Shown here: piece by piece, positions 37,471 to 64,000 of the stretch
Layout: every line of letters begins with the position of its first letter
How positions within the stretch are numbered: position 1 is the first letter of the stretch
Assembly: GCA_043814605.1 (NCBI GenBank)
Contig: JBDRJV010000022.1
Coordinates: 149,305 to 213,304, forward strand
Direction: 5' to 3'
DNA length: 64,000 bases
DNA from: Candidatus Omnitrophota bacterium
Lineage (GTDB): Bacteria; Omnitrophota; Gorgyraeia; B26-G9
Translations under genes and position numbers: made by a program
Notes under the pieces: generated by a model
Told to the model about the DNA's origin: nothing
Database searches by the model: none
The model's input: only the letters and a program-made list of their open reading frames with translations

Positions 37471-37488
37471 TTTTATATTTTTAGATTT

Positions 37489-45040: not shown

Positions 45041-45580
45041 TTAAGGAATCGCAATCTTATAAACCATTAATTCACATCTAATCAGGTTGGATTGTTTGGA
45101 CTTAGGGCTGATTTCAAAAGCATTTATTTGGATAAGCATTGATGATTTTTCGATTGAATACATGAATACAACAAGATCTTCGATCTCAGCTTCACAACTT
45201 ATGTTTAAAGGAAACATTTGGGTTGCACCTTTTTTAATTACCTCCTGTGTCTTTAAATTATTTAAATGAACATAATTTGTATTTGCTAAACCCTCAATTT
45301 CCTTTAATAATGCTGCTTTTTCTTCTTCGGTTGAACCCGGTTTTACGATAAAAGAAGAATATTTCTTTTCTTCTGCTTCTATTTTTTTGCGCTGCATGAG
45401 AATTTTTGAATTTTTACTCATTTCATATTCTGTAGTTTTAATATTTTCTTCCAAAGTTTTCATCTTATGGATAATTGGATATAAAATAACTCTGTCGATT
45501 AAGGCAATCAAGACAAACGCGATTGAGGCATAAAGAACCATTTTTTCTCTTTTTGAAAATTTTTTTAAAAATTCTTGCAT
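45041..45580 (-). CDS. GspM/PilO-like bitopic protein; the assignment is positional.
   Basis: 179 aa with one N-terminal transmembrane helix (VLYASIAFVLIALI) and a periplasmic domain. It is the last gene of the pseudopilin block. Confidence 0.4.
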   Translation of the reverse strand: MQEFLKKFSKREKMVLYASIAFVLIALIDRVILYPIIHKMKTLEENIKTTEYEMSKNSKILMQRKKIEAEEKKYSSFIVKPGSTEEEKAALLKEIEGLANTNYVHLNNLKTQEVIKKGATQMFPLNISCEAEIEDLVVFMYSIEKSSMLIQINAFEISPKSKQSNLIRCELMVYKIAIP

Positions 45581-45615
45581 TTACTCACCTAATTTTTAGC
45601 TTTATCTTTAATGTT

Positions 45616-47055: not shown

Positions 47056-47060
47056 TTTTT

Positions 47061-48116: not shown

Positions 48117-48222
48117 TATTTTATTTATACCTTTTTTAATATTATATTTCTTTATTTTTCAGTTTACAAACTCCACCGGTTATCTTTGGTCTGATTAATT
48201 TCGAATTATCTATAATTACAAA

Positions 48223-48861
48223 CTAGTATATTTCCCCTCCGACGGCCAGTTCAATTATTTTACTGTGCTTAGTCATTGTTTGACCTTCATTAATATTAAA
48301 GGTAAGCCTCACAGCTAAAGGATATTTTGTGTTCTTTTGTTTTTCATCTTTAGGCGGCCAGGAATCTATCCAAAAAAAAGATTTTTTTTCTTGATCATAA
48401 AAATTATACTCAAAAAGAAGAGAAGTTAATCCTTCTAGTAAAATTCGCGGGTTTGATTTTTTTTTGTTAGATTGCTCGGAAAATAAATTCTGATAACTAA
48501 AAAATTGCCTGTTAATTGCGCCTTTATTTTGATCATAAAAATATGTTATTTGCCCGATACGCTGCGAAACTTCTCCCGGGCTAACCGGAATATTTATCAC
48601 TCCCGGGAAATTTAAGTTATGCTCACCTCCTGTAAAATCAATGCCTTGAAAATAAATACAATTTTTTAAATCCATTTCTAGCCAGTCTAAAAACAAAGTC
48701 ATATCAATTTGCGATGTTTCTTGATTAACAATTTGCCATACTTTTAAACCATTAGAGATCATTACATATACTGTTACCGAAACAATAACGCTCATTGCCG
48801 CAGCTAAAAGCATTTCAATAAGAGTGAGTCCTTTTTGTTTATTTTTAATTTTCATGCGCAA
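48223..48861 (-). CDS. Minor pseudopilin (GspJ-like).
   Basis: The prepilin signal KGLTLIEMLLAAAM is present. 212 aa, located between the I-like and K-like genes. Confidence 0.55.
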   Translation of the reverse strand: MRMKIKNKQKGLTLIEMLLAAAMSVIVSVTVYVMISNGLKVWQIVNQETSQIDMTLFLDWLEMDLKNCIYFQGIDFTGGEHNLNFPGVINIPVSPGEVSQRIGQITYFYDQNKGAINRQFFSYQNLFSEQSNKKKSNPRILLEGLTSLLFEYNFYDQEKKSFFWIDSWPPKDEKQKNTKYPLAVRLTFNINEGQTMTKHSKIIELAVGGEIY

Positions 48862-49310
48862 TTGAATTTATATTTTTTTATCAGAAAATCAACGATTAAA
48901 ATATTACTGAAATATTTTTTTATCAAAGTGAATCTTTGAACCGAATACTGCTTTGAACCTACAAACCAGCTCATCCTTACTTTCACTAAATAAAGCCCCT
49001 GCCTTAAATCTTTTGATTCTAAAAGCACTTCCCAATTAAAAATTTTATTGCCGAATTTTACAATGCCGGCATCATTAAGCGTAACAAAGGTTTCCAGGGG
49101 ACTGTTAAAATCATTTTGCAGCTGTGCTATTTTTTCATTGATAAATAACTGTGCCTTTAAACGGTCATTAAATAAATTTATTGCATCTAAAGACATCAAA
49201 TATATTTCAAAAATCGCCACGATTCCCACAGCTAAGATCACGGTTGCTACCATTACCTCAACCAATGTAAATCCTTTACGGTTATAATTTGATATTTTTT
49301 TCATATTCAA
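48852..49310 (-). CDS. Minor pseudopilin (GspI-like).
   Basis: The prepilin signal RKGFTLVEVMVATVIL is present. 152 aa, downstream of gspG. Confidence 0.55.
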   Translation of the reverse strand: MNMKKISNYNRKGFTLVEVMVATVILAVGIVAIFEIYLMSLDAINLFNDRLKAQLFINEKIAQLQNDFNSPLETFVTLNDAGIVKFGNKIFNWEVLLESKDLRQGLYLVKVRMSWFVGSKQYSVQRFTLIKKYFSNILIVDFLIKKYKFNCA

Positions 49311-49352
49311 TTTTTTTATTCGCCATCTGCTAAACGCGATACACTGCTTTAA

Positions 49353-49754
49353 TCACCAATTCGTAACATCATCTTCACTGGCTAATCCGTCTCGGCCGAG
49401 GGAATATAAATCATAATCCTGCGGTCTATTTTGGCCGGGAGATTTATATTCATAAGTCCGGCCCCAGGGGTCAAGCGGCTCTTTTTCTAAATAAGGACCA
49501 TTCCAGCTGGCTAATGAGGCGGGATTAGCCATCAGTGCTTTTAACCCTTCTGCCGTCGAGGGAAACTGACCATTATCTAATTCGTAGAGTTTTAAAGCTG
49601 TAGCTATATTCGCCATAATATCTGCCCGGGCTGCAGCAGTTTTAGCCTGTTCAGAGCGTCCGGTTAACCGCGGCAAAACCATTGCCGCTAATGCACTGAT
49701 AATAATCACAACCAGCATTAATTCGATCAATGTGAATCCTTTTTTTCTATTCAC
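49353..49754 (-). CDS. gspG: Major pseudopilin GspG.
   Basis: The protein is KGFTLIELMLVVIIISALAAMVLPRL...DNGQFPSTAEGLKAL...WNGPYL...DPWGRTYEY...YDLYSLGRDG, which matches the GspG consensus closely throughout. Confidence 0.9.
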   Translation of the reverse strand: MNRKKGFTLIELMLVVIIISALAAMVLPRLTGRSEQAKTAAARADIMANIATALKLYELDNGQFPSTAEGLKALMANPASLASWNGPYLEKEPLDPWGRTYEYKSPGQNRPQDYDLYSLGRDGLASEDDVTNW

Positions 49755-49821: not shown

Positions 49822-49851
49822 TTAAGCTATTTTAAAAATAGCTTAATTGAA
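49817..49851. promoter_or_regulatory. Perfect 35-bp palindrome (TTCAATTAAGCTATTTT-A-AAAATAGCTTAATTGAA) overlapping the stop codon of the upstream metallopeptidase-like gene.
   Basis: The two 17-nt arms are exact reverse complements, confirmed base by base. The stem is AT-rich and no U-tract follows, so an operator or protein-binding site is more likely than a terminator. Confidence 0.7.
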
Positions 49852-50703
49852 TACGTATTCACACCATTTTTTTTCTAATTCAGCCGTTGTCCTCATTTGT
49901 ACTGGATAAGAAAACTTCAAAGCATCGTTAATTGTTTTGCCGTCTCTTAATTGACGGCAAAAAATCAAAAAATTCTCAGCACTATATTCTTCAATAAGAA
50001 ATCCGATTAAGGAAAACGCTTGCAAATAAAAAACATCAACTAAAGTATTTCCCTCTAATTCTAAAAGTTGTTTTTGAAAATTATCTTTATTTATACTGTA
50101 TATTTTTATTTTTTCCTGGCCATTTATTTTCCGCACATCTAGCTGCATTAATTCATCCAAAGAAAGCAGCAGGCTATTTTGCGCTAATTGCTTTACCATT
50201 TTTTTTCGTTGATTACGAATTTTTTCCTCTTCCCATTGAGCCACTCCTTCATCCAGCCATAAGGGGATTTGCCCGGTAAACCCGACAAAATCACGGAATA
50301 TCAAATGCGCCATTTCATGGGGCAGAAGTAAATCCAAAAAACCTCTCCCCCAAGCATAACTTACAATCATTTTTTTTTGGTAATCAGCTACTCCATGCGA
50401 CCAAGCATTCTGCCCTGTTCCTTGGATAAAAGACTCATGATCAGGGTAAATATATATTTTAACCCGGTTATTCCATTTCCAAAAATTAGAAAACCGCACA
50501 TAGCCTAAATCACGGGCGATGGAATCATAATATTTTTCTGATTGTAGACTTACTTCTTTGGCAAAATCCTGATAATCTGGCTGGTAGTAGACAAGGAAAT
50601 GTTCGCCTTTAAGCTCTGACCATTCTGCAGCCGCCTGGCTTAAATTTAAAAACATAAAAAAAAATATTAACAAATAAATTATTTTTAATTTCAAATTGAT
50701 CAA
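49843..50703 (-). CDS. Secreted putative gluzincin-type metallopeptidase (HExxH plus a downstream Glu; Peptidase_MA-like).
   Basis: A signal peptide is present. The motif HEMAH has a Glu 19 residues after the second His (LDEGVAQW), which is the thermolysin-type spacing. The gene is embedded between gspF and gspG. Confidence 0.5.
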   Translation of the reverse strand: MINLKLKIIYLLIFFFMFLNLSQAAAEWSELKGEHFLVYYQPDYQDFAKEVSLQSEKYYDSIARDLGYVRFSNFWKWNNRVKIYIYPDHESFIQGTGQNAWSHGVADYQKKMIVSYAWGRGFLDLLLPHEMAHLIFRDFVGFTGQIPLWLDEGVAQWEEEKIRNQRKKMVKQLAQNSLLLSLDELMQLDVRKINGQEKIKIYSINKDNFQKQLLELEGNTLVDVFYLQAFSLIGFLIEEYSAENFLIFCRQLRDGKTINDALKFSYPVQMRTTAELEKKWCEYVFN

Positions 50704-50704: not shown

Positions 50705-51928
50705 CTATTTAACCATAATATTTAGTTGAAAAACAGGCAAGAGCATCGAAACAATAATAAAGCCGACAACAGCCCCCATAATCAAAATCATTATCGGTTC
50801 AAGCAAATTAGTCATGATTTTAATCGCTTCCTCTGTTTCCTGTTCATAGGTATTGGCTAATTCATGTAAAGCTTCGTCTAAATTCCCGGATTCTTCGCCT
50901 ACTTTAATTAAATTCACCATAAACTTGGGAAAAACATTAGATTGATCAAGCACCAGGCCAAAAGATTCCCCTTGTTCAATAGCTTTATAACCTTTAACTA
51001 ACTCTTGCTTGATAACCTCATTATTTAACGTAGGAATACTTGTCTGTATTGCTTTTAATAATTGGATACCACTCGCTAATAAGAGTTCCAGGGTAATGCT
51101 AAAACAAGCTAATTCTGCTTTTAAAAACATTTGACCAAAAATCGGCATTTTTAATTTAAAACTACCCAGTAATAATAATTCTCTCGAGGAAAGAGATTTT
51201 CGGTTAAGTAAAAAGATACTAAAACTAATTATTAACAGAGCAATTAACCAAACCCAGGGATTATTTAAAAAATTACTAAACGCAATAATAATTTTTGTCG
51301 GGAGTGGTAAATCTTGCCCTAATCGTGTGAAAATTTTCAATAACCTAGGCATCACAAATGTGAGCATAAAAATAATTGTTCCTATCCCTACTATACCCAT
51401 AAGGATAGGATAAGTGAGCGCAGTTCTAATTTGAGAAAAAATTCTTTCCTGTTTTTGACGATATTCCGCAATTCTTAACAGCGCTTTTTCCAGTGTCCCG
51501 CTTTCTTCCCCTGCCTTGACCAGGGCGATATAAAGAGCCGGGAAAATTTTCGGAAAAACCGCTAAAGTTGACGATAATGTTTTCCCGTCTTTTACTTCGT
51601 TATGGATACGGCCTAAAACAATTTGAAAATAACGGTTTGTTGCCTGATCTGATAAAATTTTTAATCCTTTTAAAATCGGCACTCCGGATTTCAAAAGCAC
51701 TGCTAATTGACGCGTAAAAACAGTTATTTGTTTTGCGCCAACACGCTCAGCCAAAAACCCCAAATTCGCTGGGGCCAAGCCTTCTGTGCCCTCAGCCAGT
51801 TCTATCCGAACCGGCATATATCCCATTTGGCTGATTCTTTCAACTGCCTCTTCGCGAGAAGCAGCACTGATTTGGGCATTAATAATCTTACCCGGACCTT
51901 TTTTTGCTTTATATTTATATGTCGCCAT
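50705..51928 (-). CDS. gspF: T2SS inner-membrane platform protein GspF.
   Basis: Two T2SSF repeats and three transmembrane segments. The N-terminal domain begins YKYKAKKGPGKIINAQISAASREEAVERISQMGYMPVRIE. Confidence 0.88.
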   Translation of the reverse strand: MATYKYKAKKGPGKIINAQISAASREEAVERISQMGYMPVRIELAEGTEGLAPANLGFLAERVGAKQITVFTRQLAVLLKSGVPILKGLKILSDQATNRYFQIVLGRIHNEVKDGKTLSSTLAVFPKIFPALYIALVKAGEESGTLEKALLRIAEYRQKQERIFSQIRTALTYPILMGIVGIGTIIFMLTFVMPRLLKIFTRLGQDLPLPTKIIIAFSNFLNNPWVWLIALLIISFSIFLLNRKSLSSRELLLLGSFKLKMPIFGQMFLKAELACFSITLELLLASGIQLLKAIQTSIPTLNNEVIKQELVKGYKAIEQGESFGLVLDQSNVFPKFMVNLIKVGEESGNLDEALHELANTYEQETEEAIKIMTNLLEPIMILIMGAVVGFIIVSMLLPVFQLNIMVK

Positions 51929-51963: not shown

Positions 51964-52461
51964 TCAATATCGTCGATTTGATTTTATGACAAACTTATTT
52001 ATTTTTAGGCAATCATCCTGAGGCAAATCCAGAAAAGATACAGCAGCCTCATATAAATCATCGGTTTTACTATTAACTCTGACAATCTTGGCTAAACATT
52101 GAAAAGTCCCGTAATTTTTCGGAAGAATTAAAATAATATCAATTACAGCCCCGGGTAATAATTCCTTAGTTGTTTTAAAAAACAAACCTCCGGCGCTAAT
52201 ATTTTTAGTCGTCCCGCTAAATTGCGGCTGGGTCTTTGCTTTTCCCGGTTTAAACACACTATAAAGAACTTTTAACTCAATATCTAAACGTTCATAAATA
52301 CGTTTATCCGCAATTGCCAAAGCTTCTATTTTTTCCGGCTTATACCCCATATCTTTGATTTTTTCGGTTGCCTCCTCATGCGATTCAGCATAGACGATTG
52401 ATTCAATAACAGTGCCAATATTTTTTTTAGCTAAATATTTAAATACTTTCATTTTTTTCAC
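51964..52461 (-). CDS. PilZ-domain protein whose N-terminal ~45 residues resemble the N-terminal cytoplasmic domain of GspF.
   Basis: The PilZ motifs are present: RIYER (RxxxR) and NISAGG ([DN]xSxxG). The N-terminus FKYLAKKNIGTVIESIVYAESHEEATEKIKDMGYKPEKIE aligns with the adjacent GspF N-terminus (about 18 of 40 identical). There is a 4-nt overlap with the upstream gspE-PilZ gene. Confidence 0.72.
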   Translation of the reverse strand: MKKMKVFKYLAKKNIGTVIESIVYAESHEEATEKIKDMGYKPEKIEALAIADKRIYERLDIELKVLYSVFKPGKAKTQPQFSGTTKNISAGGLFFKTTKELLPGAVIDIILILPKNYGTFQCLAKIVRVNSKTDDLYEAAVSFLDLPQDDCLKINKFVIKSNRRY

Positions 52462-54644
52462 TCTTTCATTTTTAAAACATAACGGTTTAATCTGCTGCGT
52501 TCAGAATTGGGTAAATCTAAAAAACAAACACCAATATCATAATTTCTGTTTGCCACCAGTTCATTACATCGGATCACCCGGGCTAAACATTCAATATTCT
52601 TTTCGCCTTCTTTTAATTCAATAACTAAATCAATAATTACCCCTTTATTTAAGCTTTCAGACGCACTAAAAAAAACACCTCCGGCGCTGATATTTTTCAA
52701 TACTCCGATCATTTCCGGTTCATATTCTGCATTTTTCTGCCCTTGTTGCTTTTGCTTAAAAAATTTAAACCGGATATAAGAATCATCTTCGCTCCGGTCA
52801 TAAATACGCCGGTCAGCTTTATTCGGGGATTTAATTTTATTTTTATCGATAGTTAATTTTACTTTTTTTAAATTTTCATTATTCTTAATTTCCTGCTGAA
52901 CCACATCCTCCCTCTGAACCATATCCTGTAAATCATCGGATTGGGTAACACGTAAGATTTCTTCTGTCGTTGTTATCCCTTCTAAAACTTTTAACCACCC
53001 GCTTTGGCGTAAAGTCCGCATCCCTGAAGTAATCGCAACTTTTTTAATTTGATCGCTTGCCGCTTTGCGAGATGTTAATTCTTTAATTTGTTCGCTCATC
53101 GTTAATATCTCATGAATTGCGGTGCGTCCATAAAACCCGGTATTATTACACGCCGGACAACCTTTCCCTTTATAAATTTTAATTTCCTGGGGAGCATTTA
53201 AACCTAATTCCTTTGTGATCTGTTCTTTTAAGGTAAGCGATACGTCTTTATCTTCCTGCCGGCATTTCGGACAAATCACTCTGACTAAACGCTGGGCAAT
53301 AAAAACATCTACGCTTGATGCCACAAGATAAGGTTCAAGTCCAATATCAATTAACCGGGTAATACCACTAGCTGCATCATTGGTGTGTAAAGTAGAAAAC
53401 ACTAGGTGCCCGGTTAAAGCTACACGGATTGCGATATCGGCAGTTTCCCGATCGCGTACTTCTCCGACCATCATCACATCCGGATCATGCCGCAGCATAC
53501 TGCGTAATCCCCGGGCAAAACTTAACCCAAATTCTGAAGCGATTTGAATTTGCGTTATGCCTTCAAGTTCATATTCTATCGGATCTTCAATCGTGATAAT
53601 TTTACGTTCACTCGTATTAATCGAAGATAAACACGCATAAAGTGTGGTGGTTTTTCCGCTACCTGTGGGTCCAGTCAGAAATATAATACCATGCGGCTTA
53701 TTGATTAGTTCCTTAAAAAATTTAAGTTCATCCGGAGCAAGCCCTAATTTATCCAAGTTAAAAAGCATAACCATAGGCAGAAGCCTAATCACCACGCTTT
53801 CTCCGTGCGGTGTTGGGATAAAGGAAACCCTTAAGTCTAAATTTTCATCCTGAATCTTTACAATTGCCCTTCCATCCTGCGGTATACGCCGCTCGACAAT
53901 ATTTAAATTTGCCATTAACTTTATCCGGGAAAGCACGGGTATTAAAAAATTTTTCATTTCCCCGGATACATTAGCATCATAAAGGATCCCGTCGATTCGA
54001 TAACGTAATCTGAGTTTTTTACGGTAAGGTTCAATATGAATATCCGTAGCTCTTTTTTTATACGCCTCTAAAATTATTTGGTTAACTAATTGAATTATTG
54101 AGATTTGGTCACTTGATTCTTCCAGATCATCGACTTTTGCTTCTTTTTCTGCCTGGGTATGGCTCTGGTAGGTTTTCTGAGCAATAATTTTATCAACTGT
54201 ATCTGCGCCCCATCCGTAATACTTATTAAGCATTTCCAAAACTTGATGTTCACAACTTAAAACAATTTTGACATCATAGCCTAAATGTGTTCTTATTTCA
54301 TCCTGTATTTTAATATCCAAGGGATAGGCAACCGCAACGGTTAAAATCCTATTTTCCAGAAAAAGCGGCATAAACTTAAAATAAGAAGCAATTTTTACCG
54401 GAATTCTCTGAATTAAAGTTACATCAACTACAATATCTGTAATATCTAAATATTTAATATGAAATTCCTTTGCCAAAAATTCCAGCAGTTCTTTTTCAGA
54501 AAGTTTACTTTCCTTGGCAACTAAAGGAATCGGTGAAACCTGTTTGGTGTAAGCAATATCAAAAAAATCCTGGATTTTTTTCTCATCCAATTTCTTTTTA
54601 TTTTTCAAAAGTCCGATAATTCTGGTATCAGTTTTTTTATCCAT
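52458..54644 (-). CDS. gspE: GspE/PilB-family secretion ATPase with a C-terminal PilZ domain.
   Basis: An N-terminal GSPII_E domain is followed by the Walker A motif [10 protein letters not shown] and a zinc motif (CPKC...CPAC). After that, about 120 C-terminal residues carry RRIYDR and NISAGG. This domain is paralogous to the downstream standalone PilZ protein. Confidence 0.85.
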   Translation of the reverse strand: MDKKTDTRIIGLLKNKKKLDEKKIQDFFDIAYTKQVSPIPLVAKESKLSEKELLEFLAKEFHIKYLDITDIVVDVTLIQRIPVKIASYFKFMPLFLENRILTVAVAYPLDIKIQDEIRTHLGYDVKIVLSCEHQVLEMLNKYYGWGADTVDKIIAQKTYQSHTQAEKEAKVDDLEESSDQISIIQLVNQIILEAYKKRATDIHIEPYRKKLRLRYRIDGILYDANVSGEMKNFLIPVLSRIKLMANLNIVERRIPQDGRAIVKIQDENLDLRVSFIPTPHGESVVIRLLPMVMLFNLDKLGLAPDELKFFKELINKPHGIIFLTGPTGSGKTTTLYACLSSINTSERKIITIEDPIEYELEGITQIQIASEFGLSFARGLRSMLRHDPDVMMVGEVRDRETADIAIRVALTGHLVFSTLHTNDAASGITRLIDIGLEPYLVASSVDVFIAQRLVRVICPKCRQEDKDVSLTLKEQITKELGLNAPQEIKIYKGKGCPACNNTGFYGRTAIHEILTMSEQIKELTSRKAASDQIKKVAITSGMRTLRQSGWLKVLEGITTTEEILRVTQSDDLQDMVQREDVVQQEIKNNENLKKVKLTIDKNKIKSPNKADRRIYDRSEDDSYIRFKFFKQKQQGQKNAEYEPEMIGVLKNISAGGVFFSASESLNKGVIIDLVIELKEGEKNIECLARVIRCNELVANRNYDIGVCFLDLPNSERSRLNRYVLKMKE

Positions 54645-54802: not shown

Positions 54803-56209
54803 TTATCGTATCGCCCCAATCATATAAAATATATTTTCATTTTTATCGTCAAATTCACCGCTAATAATCCTCTGACAGCTGTTTAAAGTATCTTCCAGTA
54901 ATACATATTCACCCTGGCGGCCGGTGTAGGATTCCGCGACAAAAAAAGGCTGTGTTAGAAAAAACTGTAATTTACGTGCTCTTTCATAGATTACCCGGTC
55001 ATTGGCAGCAAGTTCATCAATTCCGATAACCAAAACAATTTTACGTAATTCTTCATACCTTTGAAAAATTTTTAAAACTTTTTGTGCGATATCAAAATGT
55101 TTTTCTCCGATGATATTGGGATCAAGATTAGCACAACTAGACAGTAATGGATCAACTGCAGGATAAAGACCCAGTTGGACTTTTTCCCGGGAAAGAACAA
55201 TGACAGAATCCAAGAAACTGAATATTGCCACTACCGCCGGATCAGTTAAATCATCCGCTGGAACATAAACCGCTTCCATCGAAGTAATGGAACCGCCAGT
55301 TTCACCGGTTGAACGAATACGTTCATGAAATTCACTGGCTTCTGAAATTAATGTCGGCTGATAACCTGTTTCTGAAGGGACCCGGCCCAAAAGAGTAGAG
55401 ATTTCCTGTCCTGCCTGTAAAAACCGGAAGATATTATCCACAAATAAAAGCACATCTTTATTCTGTTTTTGAATATTCTCCGCTAAGGTCATCCCAGTCA
55501 TGGCCACCTCATAACGCGCTCCCGGCGGTTCGTTCATCTGACCAAAAACAATTTTCATTTTTGATAAAATATCATGACGGGAAAGCTCATGATAAAGCTC
55601 ATTCCCCTCACGCACACGTTCTCCGACTCCGGCAAACACACAATTACCTTTATGTCTTTTTACAATATGCTGAATAATTTCCAGGGTCAAAACACTTTTA
55701 CCCATCGCCGCTCCGCCTAAGATTCCATTTTTACTTCCTTTTATTAAAGGAAATAAAAGATCAAAGATCTTAATCCCGGTTTCCATAAATTCTGTGCTTT
55801 TTTTATCATTATTTTTACGCCTAATCTGCGTACCTTTTGACGGAATCCGGATAGCTTTAGTTTCTGTAGCTTTAATCGGCCCTTTTTGATCAATCGGCTC
55901 ACCTAAAACATTAATTAATCTTGTATACATTTCATCCCCAACTGGTATTTCAATTCCCCCGCCAGTTGCAAATCCAGCAGCATCTCTTTGCAAATTATGT
56001 GTAGAATTAATCGAAATACACCGTGCAATATTTCCCGGTAAATGTTCGGCAACCTCCAAAGTCACTTTTAACTCATCTACCGTGAATGTCTGGATAATAT
56101 CATAAACATTGGGCACATCTGCTTGTAATTCAAATTTAACATCCACAACCGGCCCTTGGACGGCAATCACCCGTCCTACCCCGCCTCTTTTTTTTCGATC
56201 AGTTTTCAT
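54803..56209 (-). CDS. atpD: F-type ATPase beta subunit, divergent.
   Basis: Strong F1-beta similarity throughout, including VGERVREGNELYHE, GQMNEPPGAR, DNIFRFLQAGQEISTLLGRVPSETGYQPTL and VYVPADDLTDPA. The P-loop reads GGAAMGKSV, whereas the canonical motif is GGAGVGKTV. Confidence 0.9.
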   Translation of the reverse strand: MKTDRKKRGGVGRVIAVQGPVVDVKFELQADVPNVYDIIQTFTVDELKVTLEVAEHLPGNIARCISINSTHNLQRDAAGFATGGGIEIPVGDEMYTRLINVLGEPIDQKGPIKATETKAIRIPSKGTQIRRKNNDKKSTEFMETGIKIFDLLFPLIKGSKNGILGGAAMGKSVLTLEIIQHIVKRHKGNCVFAGVGERVREGNELYHELSRHDILSKMKIVFGQMNEPPGARYEVAMTGMTLAENIQKQNKDVLLFVDNIFRFLQAGQEISTLLGRVPSETGYQPTLISEASEFHERIRSTGETGGSITSMEAVYVPADDLTDPAVVAIFSFLDSVIVLSREKVQLGLYPAVDPLLSSCANLDPNIIGEKHFDIAQKVLKIFQRYEELRKIVLVIGIDELAANDRVIYERARKLQFFLTQPFFVAESYTGRQGEYVLLEDTLNSCQRIISGEFDDKNENIFYMIGAIR

Positions 56210-57062
56210 TTAATGACCTCGCCGCATATAATTCTCTCATATTTTGATCAATGATTTCATGCCTGGCCCGAAAATACTGGTGCCTTAATTTTAAATCCAT
56301 TTCTTTTATTCTCTCTGAACAATTTTCTAAATGCATGAACCGTGCGGATTGTTCGGCTAAACGGCTTAAACCAAAAATTTCAAAAATCTTTTGTCCGATC
56401 CACAAAAAAATTAAATATTCAATAAGCTGTACTGGTTCGGACTCATAAATTATTTCAGACAAAAAACTTTTATCCGCTTTTTCCTCAATATTTTCCTCCA
56501 AAGCAGCCGGAATAAGCTGAATAACTTCAATCCGTTGTGCAGTAAACGAAACAGCCCGGGGATAAACTATTTTTACTTTACCAAATTTTCCTTCTAAAAC
56601 ATTATTTACTAAATAATCCCTGATTGTTAAAGATTGATTTAATCTTTGTTCATCCGTAATCCCCGGAAAATTCGCATATGCCATTTTCCGGTCATTTAAA
56701 TAAAGCTGTCCGCGTTTACCTACAATAATTAATTTGTCTCCTTTTTCTGGTTCTAATAAAGACATTGCCCGTATTATAACTTGCGCATTTAATCCGCCTA
56801 ATAATCCTGCATCTGTAGTTACGGCAACAAATCCTGTTGCCTTATTTTTACTATTAATAAAAGGATGGTTAATATCAGTGATGCTTTCGCTGTAAAACCA
56901 TTTAAATATCCCCGCCACTGCATTTAAATAAACACTGTAATTTTTTATTTTTTTGTCTAAAATCTGATATTGCGCCGCAGCAATCAATTTAAGCACCTCG
57001 ATTAAAGACGCTAATGATTTATAAAATTCTACATCACTTTTAAGCTGCGCAACAGGAATCAT
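56199..57062 (-). CDS. atpG: F-type ATPase gamma subunit.
   Basis: 287 aa. The N-terminal and C-terminal helices are gamma-like, with the C-terminal region reading ...ARFMHLENCSERIKEMDLKLRHQYFRARHEIIDQNMRELYAA. It lies between alpha and beta. Confidence 0.8.
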   Translation of the reverse strand: MIPVAQLKSDVEFYKSLASLIEVLKLIAAAQYQILDKKIKNYSVYLNAVAGIFKWFYSESITDINHPFINSKNKATGFVAVTTDAGLLGGLNAQVIIRAMSLLEPEKGDKLIIVGKRGQLYLNDRKMAYANFPGITDEQRLNQSLTIRDYLVNNVLEGKFGKVKIVYPRAVSFTAQRIEVIQLIPAALEENIEEKADKSFLSEIIYESEPVQLIEYLIFLWIGQKIFEIFGLSRLAEQSARFMHLENCSERIKEMDLKLRHQYFRARHEIIDQNMRELYAARSLNEN

Positions 57063-57065
57063 TTA

Positions 57066-58598
57066 TTAACCCTCTTTTAATGAGCTTGAATAAAACTGTA
57101 TTGATTCTTCCAGATTAGCAATGCTCTCATCAATAATAATTTTACTTCTGCGTATTTCTTGCGGTAAAGCGGGAAACCACTCGCATATTTTTTTATAAAA
57201 ATCAGTTTTGAAATACTTTCTTTCATCATAGGTTAAATCATCTAAAATTCCCCGGTTTAAAGCGTACATGTCAATAATTTGATGTTCCATAGAAACCGGG
57301 CGGTCTTTTTCCTGGATAAATAATTCGGTAATTACTTCTCCCCGGCGTAATTTTTTCTCTGCATCTTTAGACAAATCCGTAGTTCTTAACTGTGTCATTT
57401 GTACAAGTTCTTTATATTGCAAAAATTCTAGACGCAAAGTCTGGCTTGAACCTTTCATTGCCGGCCACTGTGCCCGGTTTCCGATACGGGAAACTGAAAG
57501 CCCGACATCAATCGCCGGGCGCTGTCCTTTATTAAATAAAGCTGTGCTGAAATAAATTTGTCCATCAGTCATGGAAACAAGGTTAGTCGGAATATACCCT
57601 GTAACATCGCCTTGCAATGTTTCCACAATCGGTAAAAACGTCATTGCCCCGCCGCCCAGTTCTTTATTTAATTGTGCAGCTCTTTCCATAAGCTGTGAAT
57701 GCAGATAAAAAATATCTCCGGGATATGCTTCTCTTCCCGGAGCGCGGTTAAATAATAAACAAATTTGGCGGTAAACCCAAGCATGCCTAGTTAAATCATC
57801 AAAAACAACCAGTACATCTTTGCCCTGCCTCATAAAATATTCACCTAACATTGCCGCAGAATACGGCGCTAAATACTGTTCTCCTACTGAAGTCGAAGCT
57901 ACCCCGCTAACAATAATTGAATAATCCATTACGCCTTTCTCATAAAAAAGATCAATCGTCCTGAGTAAACTAGAATAAGTTTTACCGATACAGCAATAAA
58001 TGCAAATAATACCTTTATCTTTTTGATTAATCATTGCATCTGTAACTACTGTAGTTTTCCCGGTTTGTCTGTCTCCGACAAGTAATTGACGCTGCCCCCA
58101 GGCTAAAGGCATTAAAGTATCGATAATTCGGGTGCCTGATTCCAGGGTTCTTTCTACCGTAGACCGGTCCATAACACCTGGGGCATCTTTAAAAACCGGA
58201 TACATTTCATCACTCTCAATAGGGCCTTTCCCGTCAACAGGTTCACATAAGGCATTTACTATCCTGCCCACAAATTTATCCCCGACTGGCTGAAACAAAG
58301 CTTTAGCTTTACTATAAACTTTATCTCCGGCTCTTATTTGCGCTTTTGGTCCAAGCATAAGAATTTGCACGTCCTTTTCCGTAAACCCCATAACTATTCC
58401 CCTTAGCCCACTATCAAATTCCACTATTTGACCATTAACACAGGAAGGCATATTTTCGGCGAGCACAACAAATTCTCTTACTGATTTGACCACCCCAATT
58501 TCTTTAATATCAAATTGAATAACTCCTGGGTTATTGTTTTTCTTGGGCGAGAGACTCACGCACAACCTCCGTAATCTTAGAAGTAAAACTACCGTCAA
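57066..58598 (-). CDS. atpA: F-type ATPase alpha subunit.
   Basis: The Walker A motif GDRQTGKTTV and alpha-type conserved blocks are present. The track's start overlaps the b-delta gene by 68 nt, so the real start is probably further downstream and the N-terminus is uncertain. Confidence 0.88.
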   Translation of the reverse strand: MTVVLLLRLRRLCVSLSPKKNNNPGVIQFDIKEIGVVKSVREFVVLAENMPSCVNGQIVEFDSGLRGIVMGFTEKDVQILMLGPKAQIRAGDKVYSKAKALFQPVGDKFVGRIVNALCEPVDGKGPIESDEMYPVFKDAPGVMDRSTVERTLESGTRIIDTLMPLAWGQRQLLVGDRQTGKTTVVTDAMINQKDKGIICIYCCIGKTYSSLLRTIDLFYEKGVMDYSIIVSGVASTSVGEQYLAPYSAAMLGEYFMRQGKDVLVVFDDLTRHAWVYRQICLLFNRAPGREAYPGDIFYLHSQLMERAAQLNKELGGGAMTFLPIVETLQGDVTGYIPTNLVSMTDGQIYFSTALFNKGQRPAIDVGLSVSRIGNRAQWPAMKGSSQTLRLEFLQYKELVQMTQLRTTDLSKDAEKKLRRGEVITELFIQEKDRPVSMEHQIIDMYALNRGILDDLTYDERKYFKTDFYKKICEWFPALPQEIRRSKIIIDESIANLEESIQFYSSSLKEG

Positions 58599-59265
58599 AA
58601 ATCAAATTTCCTACGGTAATTACCATCCCCGCAATTAAATCATCTTTGACTGTTTCCTTAATTTTTATATCAATCTCTAAACTCTCTTTGAATTTTTTCT
58701 CAATCTCTTGTTTTTGTTTTTTATTTAAAGCAAACGCCGTAAAAACTTCTATTTCTTTAATTTTATCCGGAATTCTTAACCGGCTCAAATCACTTAATCC
58801 GTCAGAAATTAAGGCTTCAATCCACTCTTGATGCATGATTTTACGGATTTCTTCGGAAATAACTCTACAAATCAAATCACTGGAACGTTTAATTGCTTCC
58901 TTATCAATTTGCTCCTGCAACTGGGATCTTATATTTTCACAGGTTTTTTGAGCACGATCAAGTAAATCTTCGCTTTCTTTATGCGCCGCATCGATAATTT
59001 TATCCCGTTCGGCTTCAGTTTCTTTTACTGCTTTTTCTTTTAAATCCGCTGCTTCCCGCTTTGCTTTTCGTATCATATCCTGATATTGCTCTTCTGACTC
59101 TTCCAATTTTTTCTTTATTTCCTCTTGTTTTTCACTGTTGTCTTGAATCATTCCCTGTAAATGAGAAGTAGCATTAGTCACATTACTTTTAAGAAAATAC
59201 CGTAAAAAGAAGGCAAGTCCTGCAAAAATTATTACCTGTAAAAGAATTATACTGATTATAAACAT
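58531..59265 (-). CDS. atpF: F-type ATPase peripheral-stalk protein, apparently a fusion of the b and delta (OSCP-like) subunits.
   Basis: One N-terminal transmembrane helix is followed by a long charged coiled-coil, as in subunit b. The C-terminus ends ...DDLIAGMVITVGNLIFDGSFTSKI, which resembles the C-terminus of delta subunits. No separate delta gene is present. Confidence 0.55.
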   Translation of the reverse strand: MFIISIILLQVIIFAGLAFFLRYFLKSNVTNATSHLQGMIQDNSEKQEEIKKKLEESEEQYQDMIRKAKREAADLKEKAVKETEAERDKIIDAAHKESEDLLDRAQKTCENIRSQLQEQIDKEAIKRSSDLICRVISEEIRKIMHQEWIEALISDGLSDLSRLRIPDKIKEIEVFTAFALNKKQKQEIEKKFKESLEIDIKIKETVKDDLIAGMVITVGNLIFDGSFTSKITEVVRESLAQEKQ

Positions 59266-59449
59266 TTTTTTTCCTTTTCCTTAATCTCGAACCCGTTATG
59301 GGTAAGAGATATTTATTAGTCTCACCACAGTTTACTGCGTGATATTCACTGGGTGGATAAATTAACTTCCTTGTTAAAAATTTTTGTTCTTTTTTTTAAA
59401 TTCTTATTAACTATTTTTTTAGTTAAATATTAAAAAAATAATACCTGTT

Positions 59450-59668
59450 TTACGCTGTCATAAATAACTGATAAACAATCAGCATTGCCACAATTGCCAG
59501 GGCCTCGGCAAAAATTAATGTTATGGTCATAGCTGTAAAAATTTTTGGTGCAGCCGACGGATTTCTGCCTAAAGCATTAATACTGGCAAATGCCGCAACT
59601 GCCATCACCCCAGTCGGGCCTAAAATACACAAACTAAACACCAATAATAAAATAATTTGTCGTGCCAC
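59450..59668 (-). CDS. atpE: F-type ATPase c subunit (proteolipid).
   Basis: 72-aa two-helix hairpin. It has a polar loop (GRNPSAA) and a carboxylate in helix 2 (IFAEALAIV). Confidence 0.85.
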   Translation of the reverse strand: MARQIILLLVFSLCILGPTGVMAVAAFASINALGRNPSAAPKIFTAMTITLIFAEALAIVAMLIVYQLFMTA

Positions 59669-59706
59669 AATCCCTCCAAAAAATTAGCCCATTACTAATC
59701 GTCAAC

Positions 59707-59970
59707 TTATATTTGATCTGCCTTTTTGCTTTCCTTTTCAATAATTATCATTACCCGATTATTACCAACCTGGGCAACTCCTCTATATATAGGAAACAAC
59801 TCCTCATCAATAATAATTGTCCCGGAAATTAAACGGCTTAAAAGTTGTTTATGAAACGGTAAGACTTCAAAAACCCCACTTTCCCCTGGTAAAATAACCC
59901 GATTAGCCCGGCCTTGCCAAACTGTTTTTTCCGGGCTTAACACAGTAACATCCAATATTTTATCTGCCAT
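59707..59970 (-). CDS. atpC: F-type ATPase epsilon subunit, with only the N-terminal beta-sandwich domain.
   Basis: 87 aa (MADKILDVTVLSPEKTVWQG...VLPFHKQLLSRL...), which matches the epsilon N-terminal domain. The C-terminal helices are missing. Unusually, it is the first gene of the cluster. Confidence 0.7.
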   Translation of the reverse strand: MADKILDVTVLSPEKTVWQGRANRVILPGESGVFEVLPFHKQLLSRLISGTIIIDEELFPIYRGVAQVGNNRVMIIIEKESKKADQI

Positions 59971-60100
59971 ACAATTTCAGCCATGAAATTGAGTTTATAA
60001 GTTAAAGTGCATAAGTGTGCAGAATATTATTCGTACACACTTATACACTTATATACTCACAAACTAACTCCTGTCTGCCTCCCTGCATTTTATTTTATCT

Positions 60101-63100
60101 TTATTCCTTTTTTTCTTTTTTAATCTTCACCTGTTCTTCTTCCGGAAAAGAGAATTGTTTTGCTTTAGCAATATCATATCCTAATTTAGCCTTGCGATGC
60201 CAGGTAAAGAAGAATACCCCGGCTAAGAGACCAATAAACAGAATTATCGTCAGAATAATTTTCCAAGTCATTGCCCGGGTTAATGCTCCGATTTCATCCG
60301 GTTTTTCAATAATCAATTTTTCCATATCTGTTAATTCTGTTTTTAAAGACTCAACTGTCTTGATATTTACCCGATACGCGCCAATATGCTGCGCCCGGCT
60401 TAAGCTAATATCATTCTGATTCTTTAAAATATTATCTACTGTCAGGTAAACTTTCTCCGCAAGAATAGTGGCGACTTTTTCCTGCTCTGTGCCTTCCATA
60501 ATGCTGACTAGTTTAGTTGCCCGTTTTTTCATCACATCTAAAGCTGTCTGAGGAATACTCCAAATATCTTCAATCTCTACCTTAAAAACACGAATTTCTT
60601 TTGGAGCTAAATCAATATTTTGTTTATACACATAATATATTGATTTATCGGCATCAAATTCAAGCTCTAACCCGCCTAAATCCATAACATCTTTTGGGGT
60701 TACTTCCTGCGGCAGATATACTTTTACCTGAGTAGTCTGCGGTTTAACCTCTGACGGATTAGCCGCAATCACATTAACAATCAAACTTCCGGTTGATAAT
60801 GAAGTGGAAACCACTGGCTCATCTTCCATACCCCCGAGTTTATGCTGCAAAAGCTGCTGAATAAAGTTTACCATTGTTTTAATATTTTCTGATTTCTTCT
60901 TCAACTCTAAGATTGTCGGAGACTTGCCCAATGCTTCCTCAACTATAGACGAAATATCATAACCCTGGTCACCGGCTAATTCCGTTAAGCGTTCTGCCAT
61001 TTCATTTAAGGAATCCGCCAGTTTTCCGCTTGGCCCTTCATCTCTTAAAACCCGCGGTAAATCATCAATAGATTCTTGCAAACTAACCAAAGCACCTCCG
61101 ACATCTCCACCTTTGGCTAAGGTTTTTCTTAATTCTTCAACCATTTCCAGGGTATCATCAACAACAGATTTTACCTGCGGTACGCTGGAAGCTAACCCTT
61201 CAATAGAAGTGAGTGTTGTTGATTCAACCATAACTGAACCCGCCTGGAGGTTTCCGGTTGTATGTTCAGTTACTACAATGGAGAATGCTTTACCCGGCAT
61301 AAATTGTTTTCCATCTACAAAGATGTCATATCCGTAGAGTCCTCTGGTAATTACAGATTCAATTAATGGTACGCCGTTAAACACTTTTGTCCCGTCGTAG
61401 GTTGTAACTTCCATAAGCGGCATTAACCCTGAAGCAATACGGTAACGAACTTCAACTGTCCCGCCGATTAATACAGAATCAGGAATAATTAATTCCCCGG
61501 ACTGGCGTTTAGCAATTGTTTCCAGTTCTTGTCCAGCTTGTGTTGCCTGATCCGCACCCGCTTGCAGCTGCTCAATAACCTCTTCGCTTCTTTCCTCAAA
61601 ACTGGATAAGGTTTGATCTACTGATTCCTGCATTTGTGTCGTTTTTGTATCAATAATTGTAATCTGTTCATCCATTTTTGTTTCAATCAATTCTTTTTGA
61701 TCAGCTAATCCTGTATCAATTTTATTTGCTACCAAAGTCTGGAATGTCGGCAAAGTCGAATCACGCATTTCTTCAACTGCATCCTGCGTATCACGCATTT
61801 GTCTTGATTCTGTAATACTAAATGATGTCGGAGTTCTAAATTGCGCACCCGATGCGTTGATAATGATTGTCACTGCGGTATAAACTACGCCATCTTCCAA
61901 TCCTGTGGGAGCATTCCAAACCAGGTTAAAAAATCCTTCTTCATTCGGGCTGGTTGATGTTAAAGTTTTAATTTGTGCACCAGTATCATTATAAATCTTA
62001 ATCTCTACACTTTCTGCACCAGAAACAGCAAAACCGTCTCGTTCCAGCCATGAACTTGCTTTTAACTGATCATTATTGGAATCATAGGTGAATTCAGCAT
62101 AAGCACGCCAGATATGGATAACTGTTGTTTCCATAAAAATAGTATCTAATGTTTTATCCGTATTACATTCAAAACTAAACTGCTTATCTCCGTAACCTAC
62201 TTTAGACCAGACAGCCGTCCAGAATCCGTAAGGTAATTCCACAGTTACCGGTGATCCTAAGTCCGCTCCTGGGTTATTCGGCATAGTAGCAGCAGCCCAA
62301 ATATCCCCTAAGTTAGAAGTTGCATCAACAGCTAATGCCCCAAGATCTTCATTGGTTAATAAATCACGGATTGTCCAGGTAATCGAGTAGTAATCAATTG
62401 TAAAATCAGCATCTGAATCATCATATACAGAAATATCTCGATTATCAAAAATGCGTACCCGAACACTTGTTGAACGGTCATCCGGAACACTCCAGGCATA
62501 AGAATTAGTGTTGCTTAAAGATAAGGTTATTACATTAACATTGGAAACAAAATTATCTTTTGAATATTGTAACTGAACATCGGGAATTGTTCCGGTTGTG
62601 GTCCAGGTAATATTTCTTGATTCGCGGGTAATCCAGCGTTCTGCGCCATTGGGGCTGGTAATCACTAAGTTGCCGCGAATTGTAAAATCACTATTAGAAA
62701 TATCATAAACAGTATCATCATTTGGATCTTCTACTTTTACCCGAGCAGTTAAGCTAATATTGTTAGGAATTGTCCAGGTATAACTGTATGTTCCGCCGGC
62801 ACCGCTGCCATTAGGGGCACTAGAAGTAATCACATTTGAAAAACTCACGCCGCTATTTATTGAGTAACTTATTTTTGCTAAAGGTAATGTTCCCCCCCAA
62901 GTCCAGCTAATATTATGTACTGAACCCACAATCCACGCTTCTGCACCATTGGGAGAATTAACTGTAAAGAATCCTTGAATACGGAAATCAGCATCAGAAT
63001 CATCATATACTGTTGCATCAGCAGCATCTAAAACTCTTACGCGTGCTTTTGCCGTGGCTGTATCCGGGACAGTCCAGGCATAGGTATTAGTATTTAGTGT

Positions 63101-64000
63101 GCTTACGGTAACTATATTCGGATACGAAACTCCTGAATCTGTTGAGTATAGAATTTGCACATTGGCAATAGTTCCGGTTGTATTCCAGGTAATATTACTC
63201 ACCTGGTTAATTGCCCATTTTTCTGCTCCGTTAGGAGAGGTTACGGCAATCGCACCTTTGATTTTAAAACTAGCATCCGATATATCATAAGCATCACTAT
63301 CTGTAGAACTCCTCACTCTGACTTTTACATTTGTTGAAATTGCATCTGGTATTGTTGGCCAAATATGCGTACCGTCATTCGCAGTGCTGCCAATAATTGC
63401 TGTAGAACTAGAAAAATCATTTATAGAATAATGTAAATCTACAATACTCACCGTACCTAACACACTCCAGGTTATTTCAAAAGAATCATTTACCGTGAGA
63501 ATTTCTCCGCCGTTAGGCGTCAAGAGAGTAAAATCAGCTCTGATCTTAGCATTAGCATTAGAAATATCATAAGCAGTTGAATCTCCTAAGTCGCTGACTT
63601 TAACTCTCAACTGCGGGGTAATATCATCCGGAATAAGCCAAGCATATGTTCCGGTATTATTGGTGGCAGTAATAATATTCGGATAACTTGCTCCGCCGTC
63701 TTTTGAATATTCGATTTTTACCTCAGAAACTGTTCCCTGCCAAGTCCAGGTAATGTTTTCCGTTGAATTTACATCCCACATTTCCCCGCCGTTAGGTGCG
63801 GTAACTGTAAAAGCTGCGGTAATTTTAAAACTGGCATTAGAATCATCATATGCTCCCGGATCATTAGTATCCGATATTCTAATTTTTACATTACTAGAAA
63901 TAGAGTCCGGAATAGTCCAAGCATAACTTCCGGTGTTCGCTCCATTATCAACAACTGTGTGGAAATCTGTGACAAAATTATCCAGTGAGTAAACAATCCT
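60101..64000 (-). CDS. Giant tail-anchored surface protein with many tandem Ig-like repeats of about 90 aa (SPNGGE.W-type); the 5' end lies beyond the window.
   Basis: The reading frame stays open from 63781 to the window edge. Hand translation of that stretch gives further repeats (...YAWTIPD...VKIRISDTNDPGAYDDSNASFKIT...TAPNGGEMW). At least 9 repeats carry the motifs ITW..GT...V.I.YS.D.G.SY.NI and YAW.VPD. These are followed by a coiled-coil region and a C-terminal transmembrane helix (IILTIILFIGLLAGVFFF) with a short basic tail. Confidence 0.8.
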   Translation of the reverse strand, partial: RIVYSLDNFVTDFHTVVDNGANTGSYAWTIPDSISSNVKIRISDTNDPGAYDDSNASFKITAAFTVTAPNGGEMWDVNSTENITWTWQGTVSEVKIEYSKDGGASYPNIITATNNTGTYAWLIPDDITPQLRVKVSDLGDSTAYDISNANAKIRADFTLLTPNGGEILTVNDSFEITWSVLGTVSIVDLHYSINDFSSSTAIIGSTANDGTHIWPTIPDAISTNVKVRVRSSTDSDAYDISDASFKIKGAIAVTSPNGAEKWAINQVSNITWNTTGTIANVQILYSTDSGVSYPNIVTVSTLNTNTYAWTVPDTATAKARVRVLDAADATVYDDSDADFRIQGFFTVNSPNGAEAWIVGSVHNISWTWGGTLPLAKISYSINSGVSFSNVITSSAPNGSGAGGTYSYTWTIPNNISLTARVKVEDPNDDTVYDISNSDFTIRGNLVITSPNGAERWITRESRNITWTTTGTIPDVQLQYSKDNFVSNVNVITLSLSNTNSYAWSVPDDRSTSVRVRIFDNRDISVYDDSDADFTIDYYSITWTIRDLLTNEDLGALAVDATSNLGDIWAAATMPNNPGADLGSPVTVELPYGFWTAVWSKVGYGDKQFSFECNTDKTLDTIFMETTVIHIWRAYAEFTYDSNNDQLKASSWLERDGFAVSGAESVEIKIYNDTGAQIKTLTSTSPNEEGFFNLVWNAPTGLEDGVVYTAVTIIINASGAQFRTPTSFSITESRQMRDTQDAVEEMRDSTLPTFQTLVANKIDTGLADQKELIETKMDEQITIIDTKTTQMQESVDQTLSSFEERSEEVIEQLQAGADQATQAGQELETIAKRQSGELIIPDSVLIGGTVEVRYRIASGLMPLMEVTTYDGTKVFNGVPLIESVITRGLYGYDIFVDGKQFMPGKAFSIVVTEHTTGNLQAGSVMVESTTLTSIEGLASSVPQVKSVVDDTLEMVEELRKTLAKGGDVGGALVSLQESIDDLPRVLRDEGPSGKLADSLNEMAERLTELAGDQGYDISSIVEEALGKSPTILELKKKSENIKTMVNFIQQLLQHKLGGMEDEPVVSTSLSTGSLIVNVIAANPSEVKPQTTQVKVYLPQEVTPKDVMDLGGLELEFDADKSIYYVYKQNIDLAPKEIRVFKVEIEDIWSIPQTALDVMKKRATKLVSIMEGTEQEKVATILAEKVYLTVDNILKNQNDISLSRAQHIGAYRVNIKTVESLKTELTDMEKLIIEKPDEIGALTRAMTWKIILTIILFIGLLAGVFFFTWHRKAKLGYDIAKAKQFSFPEEEQVKIKKEKKE

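Follow-up and report, generated by a model that had tools for sequence, protein, structure and literature searches.

Gene Content of the F-Type Cluster

The 64,000 nt stretch of DNA analyzed here (the window) carries on its minus strand, at positions 54803-59970, a cluster of six F-type ATPase genes in the order epsilon, c, b/delta, alpha, gamma, beta. Domain identities in the window were assigned by Pfam scans of the listed open reading frames (ORFs), and the coordinates are collected in Table 1. The initial annotation had described a noncanonical gene order, an epsilon subunit cut down to its beta-sandwich, a fusion of subunits b and delta, and a beta P-loop reading GGAAMGKSV, with the gene of a giant surface protein upstream and gspE-PilZ downstream. 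This observation was confirmed in all details: the order by Pfam and the coordinates, the fusion by the domain matches given below, the epsilon truncation by the finding that only ATP-synt_DE_N was matched, the P-loop from the sequence, and the flanking genes by Pfam and the ORF listing.

Using tblastn with the window proteins as queries, we established the order of genes in 88 related loci (designated by L numbers), which were read as contigs with flanks of 10 kb on either side and together with the window amount to ~0.8 Mb. Five of these loci were found via beta orthologs, 80 metagenome loci via the c subunit, and two via the anchor protein described below. The window beta is 100% identical to a protein from an NCBI Candidatus Omnitrophota metagenome-assembled genome, and the best 120 protein clusters of beta orthologs, whose named sources are nearly all Omnitrophota/Omnitrophica, are 68-83% identical to it. 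Each of the 36 loci in which the region is complete has an intact set of the six genes. Mean identities among six loci were 70% for c, 51% for gamma, 49% for the anchor module, and 43% for b/delta, and the window c is 86-90% identical to the c subunits of L001 and L002.

The epsilon subunit consists of the beta-sandwich only and lacks the C-terminal helical domain, as do its orthologs in six loci (77-87 aa). In bacterial F1 the epsilon C-terminal domain inhibits ATP hydrolysis, and its loss therefore fits a hydrolytic enzyme. The b/delta protein starts with a transmembrane (TM) helix followed by a b-type helix, with ATP-synt_B matched at residues 6-132. The account of the fusion can be refined in one respect, as the delta part is the C-terminal domain only (OSCP profile positions 100-168 at residues 167-234). 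This architecture was identical in all related loci inspected. The delta N-terminal domain normally binds the N-terminal helices of alpha, and alignment with canonical and N-type alphas showed that the N-terminal amphipathic delta-binding helix is absent from the alphas of this lineage (termed sF, see below), whose N-termini are ~10 residues shorter and unconserved. The loss of the alpha helix thus matches the loss of the delta N-domain.

The catalytic set of the alpha3beta3 hexamer (Walker A and B, catalytic Glu, alpha Arg finger) is complete. Alpha, which probably starts at the GTG at 58559 (GGAGG precedes it in the sequence), keeps the P-loop GDRQTGKT and the Arg finger SVSR. The P-loop of the window beta conforms to the family signature GGAA[LM]GKS, and the Walker A Lys, the catalytic Glu-Arg, and the Walker B Asp of beta are invariant in 120 of 120 orthologs, including those from loci that have Gln at the ion-binding position of c.

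Absence of a Subunit a Gene

No match to PF00119 (subunit a) was found in the cluster, its flanks, or the scanned neighbors. We also built a hidden Markov model (HMM) from six a-subunits taken from annotated records (E. coli, B. thuringiensis, M. hyorhinis, and three N-ATPases). It recovered all six controls (E <= 6e-14) and nothing in the window or the 88 related loci, where the best score (E = 0.16) fell on a b/delta ORF. The claim that no a-subunit gene lies in the cluster or its flanks therefore holds by Pfam and by HMM, and it extends from the window to the related loci. The multi-TM ORFs on the coding strand of sF loci encode GspF only, and no 12-TM ORF was present at the loci.

The possibility that an a-subunit gene is hidden in enlarged epsilon-c or c-b/delta spacers was examined and rejected: these spacers have 45-58% GC and contain no long coding-strand membrane ORF, and four of them hold riboswitches. 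Separately, inserts of 0.5-1 kb with up to 53% GC occupy the c to b/delta spacers of L034 (7690-8710), L046 (8680-9310), and L042 (790-1295), and a similar insert lies in the epsilon-to-c spacer of L004 (5843-6450); none of the four showed a convincing ORF or an Rfam match. The spacers of L022, L074, and L079 have a translated motif in common, which suggests a repeated noncoding element. The epsilon-c spacer of L081 (2655-3050) contains a 131-aa coding-strand ORF that is absent from the other loci and that, judged only by eye, we take to resemble the four-helix-bundle "23S rRNA intervening sequence" proteins.

The Ion-Binding Residue of the c Subunit

Arg35-Asn36-Pro37 of the window c subunit corresponds to Arg41-Gln42-Pro43 of E. 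coli c, and Glu55 to Asp61. The loop, whose RNP contacts gamma and epsilon, reads GRNP in all 121 cluster representatives, and Lys42 does not vary among them either. Position 55 is more variable: of 86 loci, 59 have Glu here and 27 have Gln, and among the 121 protein cluster representatives the counts are 102 for Glu and 19 for Gln, so that the window c has the carboxylate and the family does not keep it invariant. Gln55 is encoded by CAG in 21 loci and by CAA in 6. The Gln-type c subunits are 77% identical among themselves, and one of them is 93% identical to a Glu-type c. In a neighbor-joining tree of beta, Gln is limited to one subclade, and the Glu lineages interspersed within it imply several switches.

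The Gln-type loci have complete clusters, and their betas (for example, P0042 and P0085) keep the catalytic residues. As a single-hairpin c subunit without a carboxylate cannot carry ions, at least these lineages run the complex without ion translocation. We found no support for a sodium-coupled role or for a purely regulatory role, both of which had been put forward in the initial annotation.

A V/A-Type ATPase in the Same Window

Pfam bore out the presence of a V/A-type ATPase operon, including subunit I, in the same window. Its seven genes encode E, a DUF2764/C-like protein, A, B, D, I, and K, and the V/A-type ATPase, which does not belong to the F-type system, is likely to be the chemiosmotic enzyme of the genome. 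The DUF2764 protein (9673-10512, minus strand) occupies the position of subunit C/d, and no gene for subunit F or G/H was found among the ORFs scanned.

The Anchor Module and the Conserved Neighborhood

The giant, repeat-rich surface protein encoded upstream of epsilon continues past the end of the window: 1226 aa follow the first ATG in the window, and there is no in-frame stop at 63602-64000. Its counterparts in related loci range from 3017 aa to at least 8471 aa. Its last 243 aa form what we call the anchor module, which is conserved in all loci. An AlphaFold2 model based on 34 sequences (pLDDT 85.7) predicts a beta-sandwich, a three-helix bundle, and one long TM helix; the module also has a short cytoplasmic tail. 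The TM helix (TWxxIxxxIxFxGLLxxVFFFTW) is conserved, with TW..I...I.F.GLL..V.FFTW shared across the loci, and so is an AFP motif in the tail. The module has no Pfam match and no fold match in the PDB. In L004 and L088 it is a gene of its own, which encodes ~270 aa with a signal peptide of its own. A profile search returned 1043 representatives at E <= 0.001, and the family takes three forms: the extreme C-terminus of proteins of 780-5013 aa, a stand-alone protein of 260-300 aa, and two tandem copies in proteins of 410-650 aa.

Wherever the contig reaches, the order of genes is anchor module, epsilon, c, b/delta, alpha, gamma, beta, GspE, (PilZ), GspF, and a HExxH protein. Of the 49 loci in which this could be tested, 46 have the anchor module immediately upstream of epsilon, and in all 27 testable loci beta is followed by GspE, which starts 159 bp past beta in the window. 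The order from the pseudopilins to PilO/GspM is repeated in L001, L002, and L004-L006. The flanking genes had been taken for unrelated neighbors, and this part of the initial annotation was not upheld: their synteny is fixed, and they are key to the system. The set that resembles a type II secretion system (T2SS) beside the ATPase has no secretin of its own.

A divergent variant with 64% GC (L087, 10001-21233) shows which parts are retained. A two-copy anchor protein of 410 aa lies directly upstream, and the order is anchor, alphaA, alphaB, epsilon, c, b/delta, gamma, beta, GspE, GspF, GspG. The two alpha paralogs are 45.6% identical, and Ile replaces the Arg finger in alphaB. GspE has no PilZ domain, there is no giant ORF upstream, and there is no a-subunit. 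As L087 keeps the anchor, the F-like genes, and GspE/F, we conclude that the anchor, the F-like ATPase, and GspE/F are the conserved core.

The spacer between the anchor and epsilon is <= 30 nt long in most loci. In the window it is occupied by one long RNA hairpin (-46 kcal/mol, z = -8.0), and none of 200 shuffled sequences folded as well. Comparable hairpins (z <= -6) were found in 8 related loci (L004, L014, L032, L007/L001, L077, L045, L066). The hairpin could be a processing or attenuation site.

Cyclic di-GMP Sensors and Riboswitches

Control by cyclic di-GMP (c-di-GMP) typically governs attachment and motility and is not characteristic of bioenergetic operons. By Pfam, the locus in the window encodes three c-di-GMP sensor domains, one MshEN and two PilZ, and both PilZ domains show the motifs RxxxR and NxSxxG in translation. 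Rfam searches identified riboswitches of the c-di-GMP-I or c-di-GMP-I-GGC family on the coding strand of the epsilon-c spacer in five related loci (Table 1). Twenty further long loci, L087 and L088 among them, were negative, as was the window, and the riboswitch is thus confined to a minority of loci. In a limited literature search, we found no c-di-GMP riboswitch before F-type ATPase c/b/alpha/gamma/beta genes. A scan for promoters and terminators gave nothing above shuffled expectation. Many loci have a stand-alone MshEN protein of ~150-160 aa between beta and GspE-PilZ (for example, L005 11472-11963, L006 11414-11884, and L088 15933-16388), a putative further c-di-GMP receptor; the window has none.

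Relationship to Known F-Type ATPases

The window beta is 48-49% identical to the betas of E. coli, B. thuringiensis, and M. hyorhinis type 1 and 44-45.5% identical to those of three N-ATPases; for alpha, the corresponding values are 38-43% and 35-39%. In PDB searches with the window beta, canonical F1 betas scored 459-486 bits and the G1 beta of M. mobile (9io5_A) 318 bits, with type III secretion system (T3SS) ATPases as distant matches; alpha scored up to 465 bits against canonical alpha. We built bootstrapped neighbor-joining trees of alpha and beta from sF, canonical, and N-type sequences, rooted on the V-type A and B subunits of the window; the Mycoplasma type 2/3 proteins were compared through the PDB bit scores. 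The sF clade, L087 included, was monophyletic, with bootstrap values of 100% (beta) and 82% (alpha), and the cluster therefore does not lie among the sampled ordinary F1Fo operons. The grouping of sF with N-type sequences received 24% (beta) and 56% (alpha), and sF was not nested within N-type. The phylogeny that the initial annotation had proposed thus gives the cluster an F-type clade of its own, outside the sampled canonical and N-type sequences.

Compared with canonical F1Fo (atpBEFHAGDC), the window cluster shares alpha, beta, gamma, epsilon, c, a b-type stalk, and intact catalytic motifs. It differs in having no a-subunit, a delta that is reduced to the C-domain and fused to b, an alpha without the N-helix, an epsilon that lacks the C-domain and is encoded first, a c carboxylate position that is Glu or Gln across the family, and the P-loop GGAA[LM]GKS. 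N-ATPases (atpDCQRBEFAG; plasmid operons of Picosynechococcus, Acaryochloris, and Cereibacter) are likewise accessory, have a noncanonical order, and lack a free-standing delta. In contrast to the window cluster, they begin with beta-epsilon and have genes for subunit a and for AtpQ/R (AtpI/AtpZ-like).

Loci of this type have been in the literature since 2023 and are uncharacterized. Seymour et al. (2023; Nat Microbiol; PMC10066038) reported a nonrespiratory "symbiotic" F-type ATPase (sF-ATP) in every Omnitrophota class, encoded within 10 kb of type 4a pilus clusters, with giant ORFs in the same genomes, and grouped the sF alpha with the Mycoplasma type 2/3 ATPases. The window locus agrees with theirs in phylum, in having F-type genes within 10 kb of GspE/GspF/pilin genes, and in having an alpha outside the respiratory clade. 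Its subunit set, with c and b/delta, differs from that of type 2/3, and the bit scores of its beta, which are higher against canonical beta than against the G1 beta, argue against that assignment. The terms "a-subunit," "c-ring," "PilZ," "c-di-GMP," and "riboswitch" do not occur in the main text of that paper. West-Roberts et al. (2023) described T2SS-like loci and PilZ genes near giant genes and did not discuss the F-type ATPase, and a preprint (bioRxiv 10.64898/2026.06.07.730766) noted an "incomplete F1F0 chemiosmotic apparatus" in most of 176 complete genomes. In the searchable literature, we found no mention of an a-less state such as that of the 88 loci, of a c subunit with either Glu or Gln, of a delta N-domain and an alpha N-helix that are lost together, of a conserved anchor protein, of the riboswitch, or of the architectural split from Mycoplasma type 2/3.

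The Mycoplasma type 2 (G1-ATPase, gliding) and type 3 (F1-like X0) enzymes are functional precedents for an sF motor, with a different architecture. They too have F1-derived alpha, beta, gamma, and epsilon without an a-subunit, and an alpha without the N-terminal delta-binding helix; like the sF cluster, they are associated with large surface proteins and with a membrane protein that carries a signal peptide and, at its C-terminus, TM helices, and their ATP hydrolysis serves a surface function. The surface MIB-MIP system depends on the type 3 F1-like ATPase (PMC12994834). The seven-gene clusters of types 2 and 3 lack c, b, and delta; they encode a 12-TM protein, a second protein that is small and cytoplasmic, and a third that has a signal peptide and two TM helices (PMC12994834), whereas the window cluster has c and b/delta and no 12-TM protein.

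An Accessory ATPase That Probably Drives a Surface Apparatus

We consider it probable that the cluster encodes an accessory, nonchemiosmotic F-type ATPase of the Omnitrophota sF lineage, which serves as an ATP-hydrolyzing motor for a surface apparatus and not as an ATP synthase. An a-less ATPase with a c-ring is placed between the anchor of a giant protein and a secretion/pilus system, and so it most likely powers a surface apparatus with ATP. In such a motor, ATP hydrolysis, the presumed direction, would make gamma-epsilon and the c-ring rotate while no ions flow. The b/delta fusion and the single-pass anchor helix might substitute for the a/b/delta stator, and the mechanical output would cross the inner membrane to the giant protein, the T2SS-like pseudopilus platform, or both. 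There it might deploy, move, or tension the surface apparatus during attachment to host or prey cells, and chemiosmotic work would be left to the V/A-type ATPase.

A possible lead for the anchor comes from V-ATPases, in which the lumen of the c-ring is occupied by single-pass type I proteins (yeast Voa1, mammalian Ac45/ATP6AP1, and PRR). Like the anchor, these have a large extracytoplasmic domain and a short cytoplasmic tail and are encoded or assembled with a rotary c-ring. They differ in that they are assembly or accessory factors and not motor outputs, and in that contact between the anchor helix and the c-ring of sF loci is only a conjecture.

Several observations nevertheless weigh against the motor reading. 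Two thirds of the loci keep the c carboxylate, and c is among the best-conserved proteins of the cluster (mean 70% identity), a degree of conservation that exceeds what a passive anchor needs and matches that of an ion-coupled rotor. The b/delta protein would have to bind F1 without the delta N-domain. Contact of the anchor or the T2SS-like proteins with the ATPase is conjectural, and a test for covariation between the Glu/Gln state of c and residues of the anchor TM helix was negative: a His/Gln pattern that had been seen in six loci disappeared when 57 loci were compared. The window itself has no riboswitch and no other Rfam RNA family.

A bolder form of the motor reading, which we advance only tentatively, is that the sF enzymes are a distinct rotary class. 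Subunit a and ion coupling would have been discarded, and the c-ring would be a purely mechanical rotor that passes torque to the T2SS-like platform and to the anchor, in many cases the C-terminal part of a giant adhesin. The result would be a motor driven by ATP and controlled by c-di-GMP that moves or deploys the giant surface protein in predation or episymbiosis, with an architecture unlike that of the Mycoplasma F1-like motors.

Alternative Explanations

It is unlikely that the complex instead energizes export, in the manner of FliI6-FliJ at the type III gate, with F1 activating or unfolding its cargo (the giant protein or pseudopilins) and the c-ring and b/delta acting as a membrane dock. 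FliI and FliJ are structural homologs of F1 alpha/beta and gamma, and the T3SS ATPases recur among the distant PDB matches of beta; the cluster adjoins a T2SS-like system and the gene of a very large exported protein, and the carboxylate is dispensable. However, L087 has no giant ORF and still retains the system, the rotor parts (gamma, epsilon, and the RNP of the c loop) are conserved as in a rotating enzyme, the locus already has a GspE ATPase of its own, and it contains no homolog of an export gate.

The initial annotation had left open whether the a-subunit is encoded elsewhere or the complex has been repurposed. Under the first option, the enzyme would be an ordinary ion-translocating F1Fo whose a-subunit gene lies elsewhere in the genome and whose neighbors are incidental or merely regulatory. 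That the window and 59 of 86 loci keep the carboxylate, that c is strongly conserved, that the catalytic residues of F1 are all intact, and that beta is ~48-49% identical to the betas of E. coli and Bacillus would all be expected of such an enzyme. We nonetheless regard it as quite improbable and favor repurposing, because no a-subunit was found in 88 loci (~0.8 Mb), 27 loci, about a third, have Gln in place of the carboxylate in otherwise intact, conserved clusters, the delta N-domain and the alpha N-helix have both been lost, the synteny is fixed, with epsilon tightly spaced after the anchor gene, c-di-GMP control elements are present (in five loci as a riboswitch inside the operon), and alpha and beta form a clade of their own. 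A V-type ATPase is also encoded in the same genome. A weak further point is that one genome in the KO table of Seymour et al. (PMC10066038) has, in the part consulted, calls for alpha and beta and none for a, b, c, delta, or gamma.

Finally, the idea that the cluster is a decaying F-type remnant, redundant with the V-type ATPase and being lost, could appeal to the missing a-subunit, delta N-domain, and epsilon C-domain and to the loss of the carboxylate in some lineages, and we give it almost no credence, as it is contradicted by the conservation data: six intact genes in the 36 loci with a complete region, 68-83% identity and invariant catalytic residues among the best 120 beta orthologs, an average identity of 70% for c, use of both synonymous Gln codons, and a gene order that is fixed across the loci sampled.

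Implications

In the textbook view, F-type ATPases obligatorily couple ATP chemistry to the flow of ions at the a/c interface. The sF enzymes keep the c-ring, have no a-subunit in the loci examined, tolerate Gln at the ion-binding position, and are linked to surface machinery; if the motor reading is true, they would therefore exemplify a c-ring used in nature without ion translocation. They would also be a second, independent case, after Mycoplasma type 2/3, of F1 recruited to drive extracellular machinery, and they could reveal the power source for attachment or predation in ultra-small, host-dependent Omnitrophota. In metabolic reconstructions of these genomes, "F-type ATPase present" should not be taken to mean chemiosmotic capacity.

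Other Features of the Window

The features of the window and the riboswitches of related loci are listed in Table 1.

Table 1. Positions of the genes and RNA elements discussed in the text
Locus	Feature	Positions	Strand	Basis and remarks
Window	Giant repeat-rich surface protein, 3' part	60101-64000	-	ORF continues past window end
Window	Anchor module (last 243 aa of giant protein)	60104-60832	-	Conservation, AlphaFold2 model
Window	Spacer, giant gene to epsilon	59971-60100	-	130 nt, one long RNA hairpin
Window	epsilon	59707-59970	-	87 aa; Pfam PF02823 (ATP-synt_DE_N), E = 1.7e-13
Window	c	59450-59668	-	72 aa; Pfam PF00137; loop GRNP, Glu55
Window	b/delta fusion	58531-59265	-	244 aa; Pfam ATP-synt_B and part of OSCP
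Window	alpha	57066-58559 (longest ORF from TTG 58598)	-	Pfam
Window	gamma	56199-57062	-	287 aa; Pfam PF00231, E = 2.8e-39
Window	beta	54803-56209	-	468 aa; Pfam; P-loop GGAAMGKS
Window	GspE/PilB-type ATPase, N-terminal MshEN and C-terminal PilZ	52458-54644	-	Pfam
Window	Stand-alone PilZ protein, 165 aa	51964-52461	-	Pfam PF07238; also in many related loci
Window	GspF/PilC platform protein	50705-51928	-	Pfam PF00482; position kept in related loci
Window	Secreted HExxH protein	49843-50703	-	Translation; Peptidase_MA_2-like in orthologs (Pfam)
Window	Pseudopilins GspG, GspH-like, GspJ, then GspK, PilM-PilN fusion, PilO/GspM	45041-49754	-	Pfam
Window	PilB-like	40560-42209	-	
Window	PilT-like	39272-40336	-	
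Window	Second PilB/GspE	37489-39216	-	
Window	PilC	36211-37470	-	
Window	PilM	34291-35922	-	Two unassigned genes between PilM and secretin
Window	Secretin	30870-32807	-	
Window	V/A-type operon E, DUF2764/C-like, A, B, D, I, K	3431-11156	-	Pfam, seven genes
L053	c-di-GMP riboswitch	7970-8054	+	66.5 bits, reaches gathering score
L079	c-di-GMP riboswitch	3353-3450	+	54.5 bits, reaches gathering score
L037	c-di-GMP riboswitch	7238-7373	+	44.8 bits, reaches gathering score
L022	c-di-GMP riboswitch	5473-5555	+	37.6 bits, reaches gathering score
L085	c-di-GMP riboswitch	877-988	+	45.4 bits, below gathering score, E = 1e-7

The genes from PilB-like to the secretin (30870-42209, minus strand) make up a second, separate type 4a pilus set. 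Between this set and the T2SS-like cluster lie the genes of PGK (43724-44908) and TIM (42199-42975), also on the minus strand, and between these two is an extra gene for a GspG-like pseudopilin (43229-43687, minus strand). In L002, PGK likewise follows the T2SS-like cluster. Of the 57 window ORFs of at least 100 aa, 54 lie on the minus strand, and each 2 kb bin has a negative GC skew, so that the whole 64 kb reads as one co-directional block, which is consistent with a single replichore.

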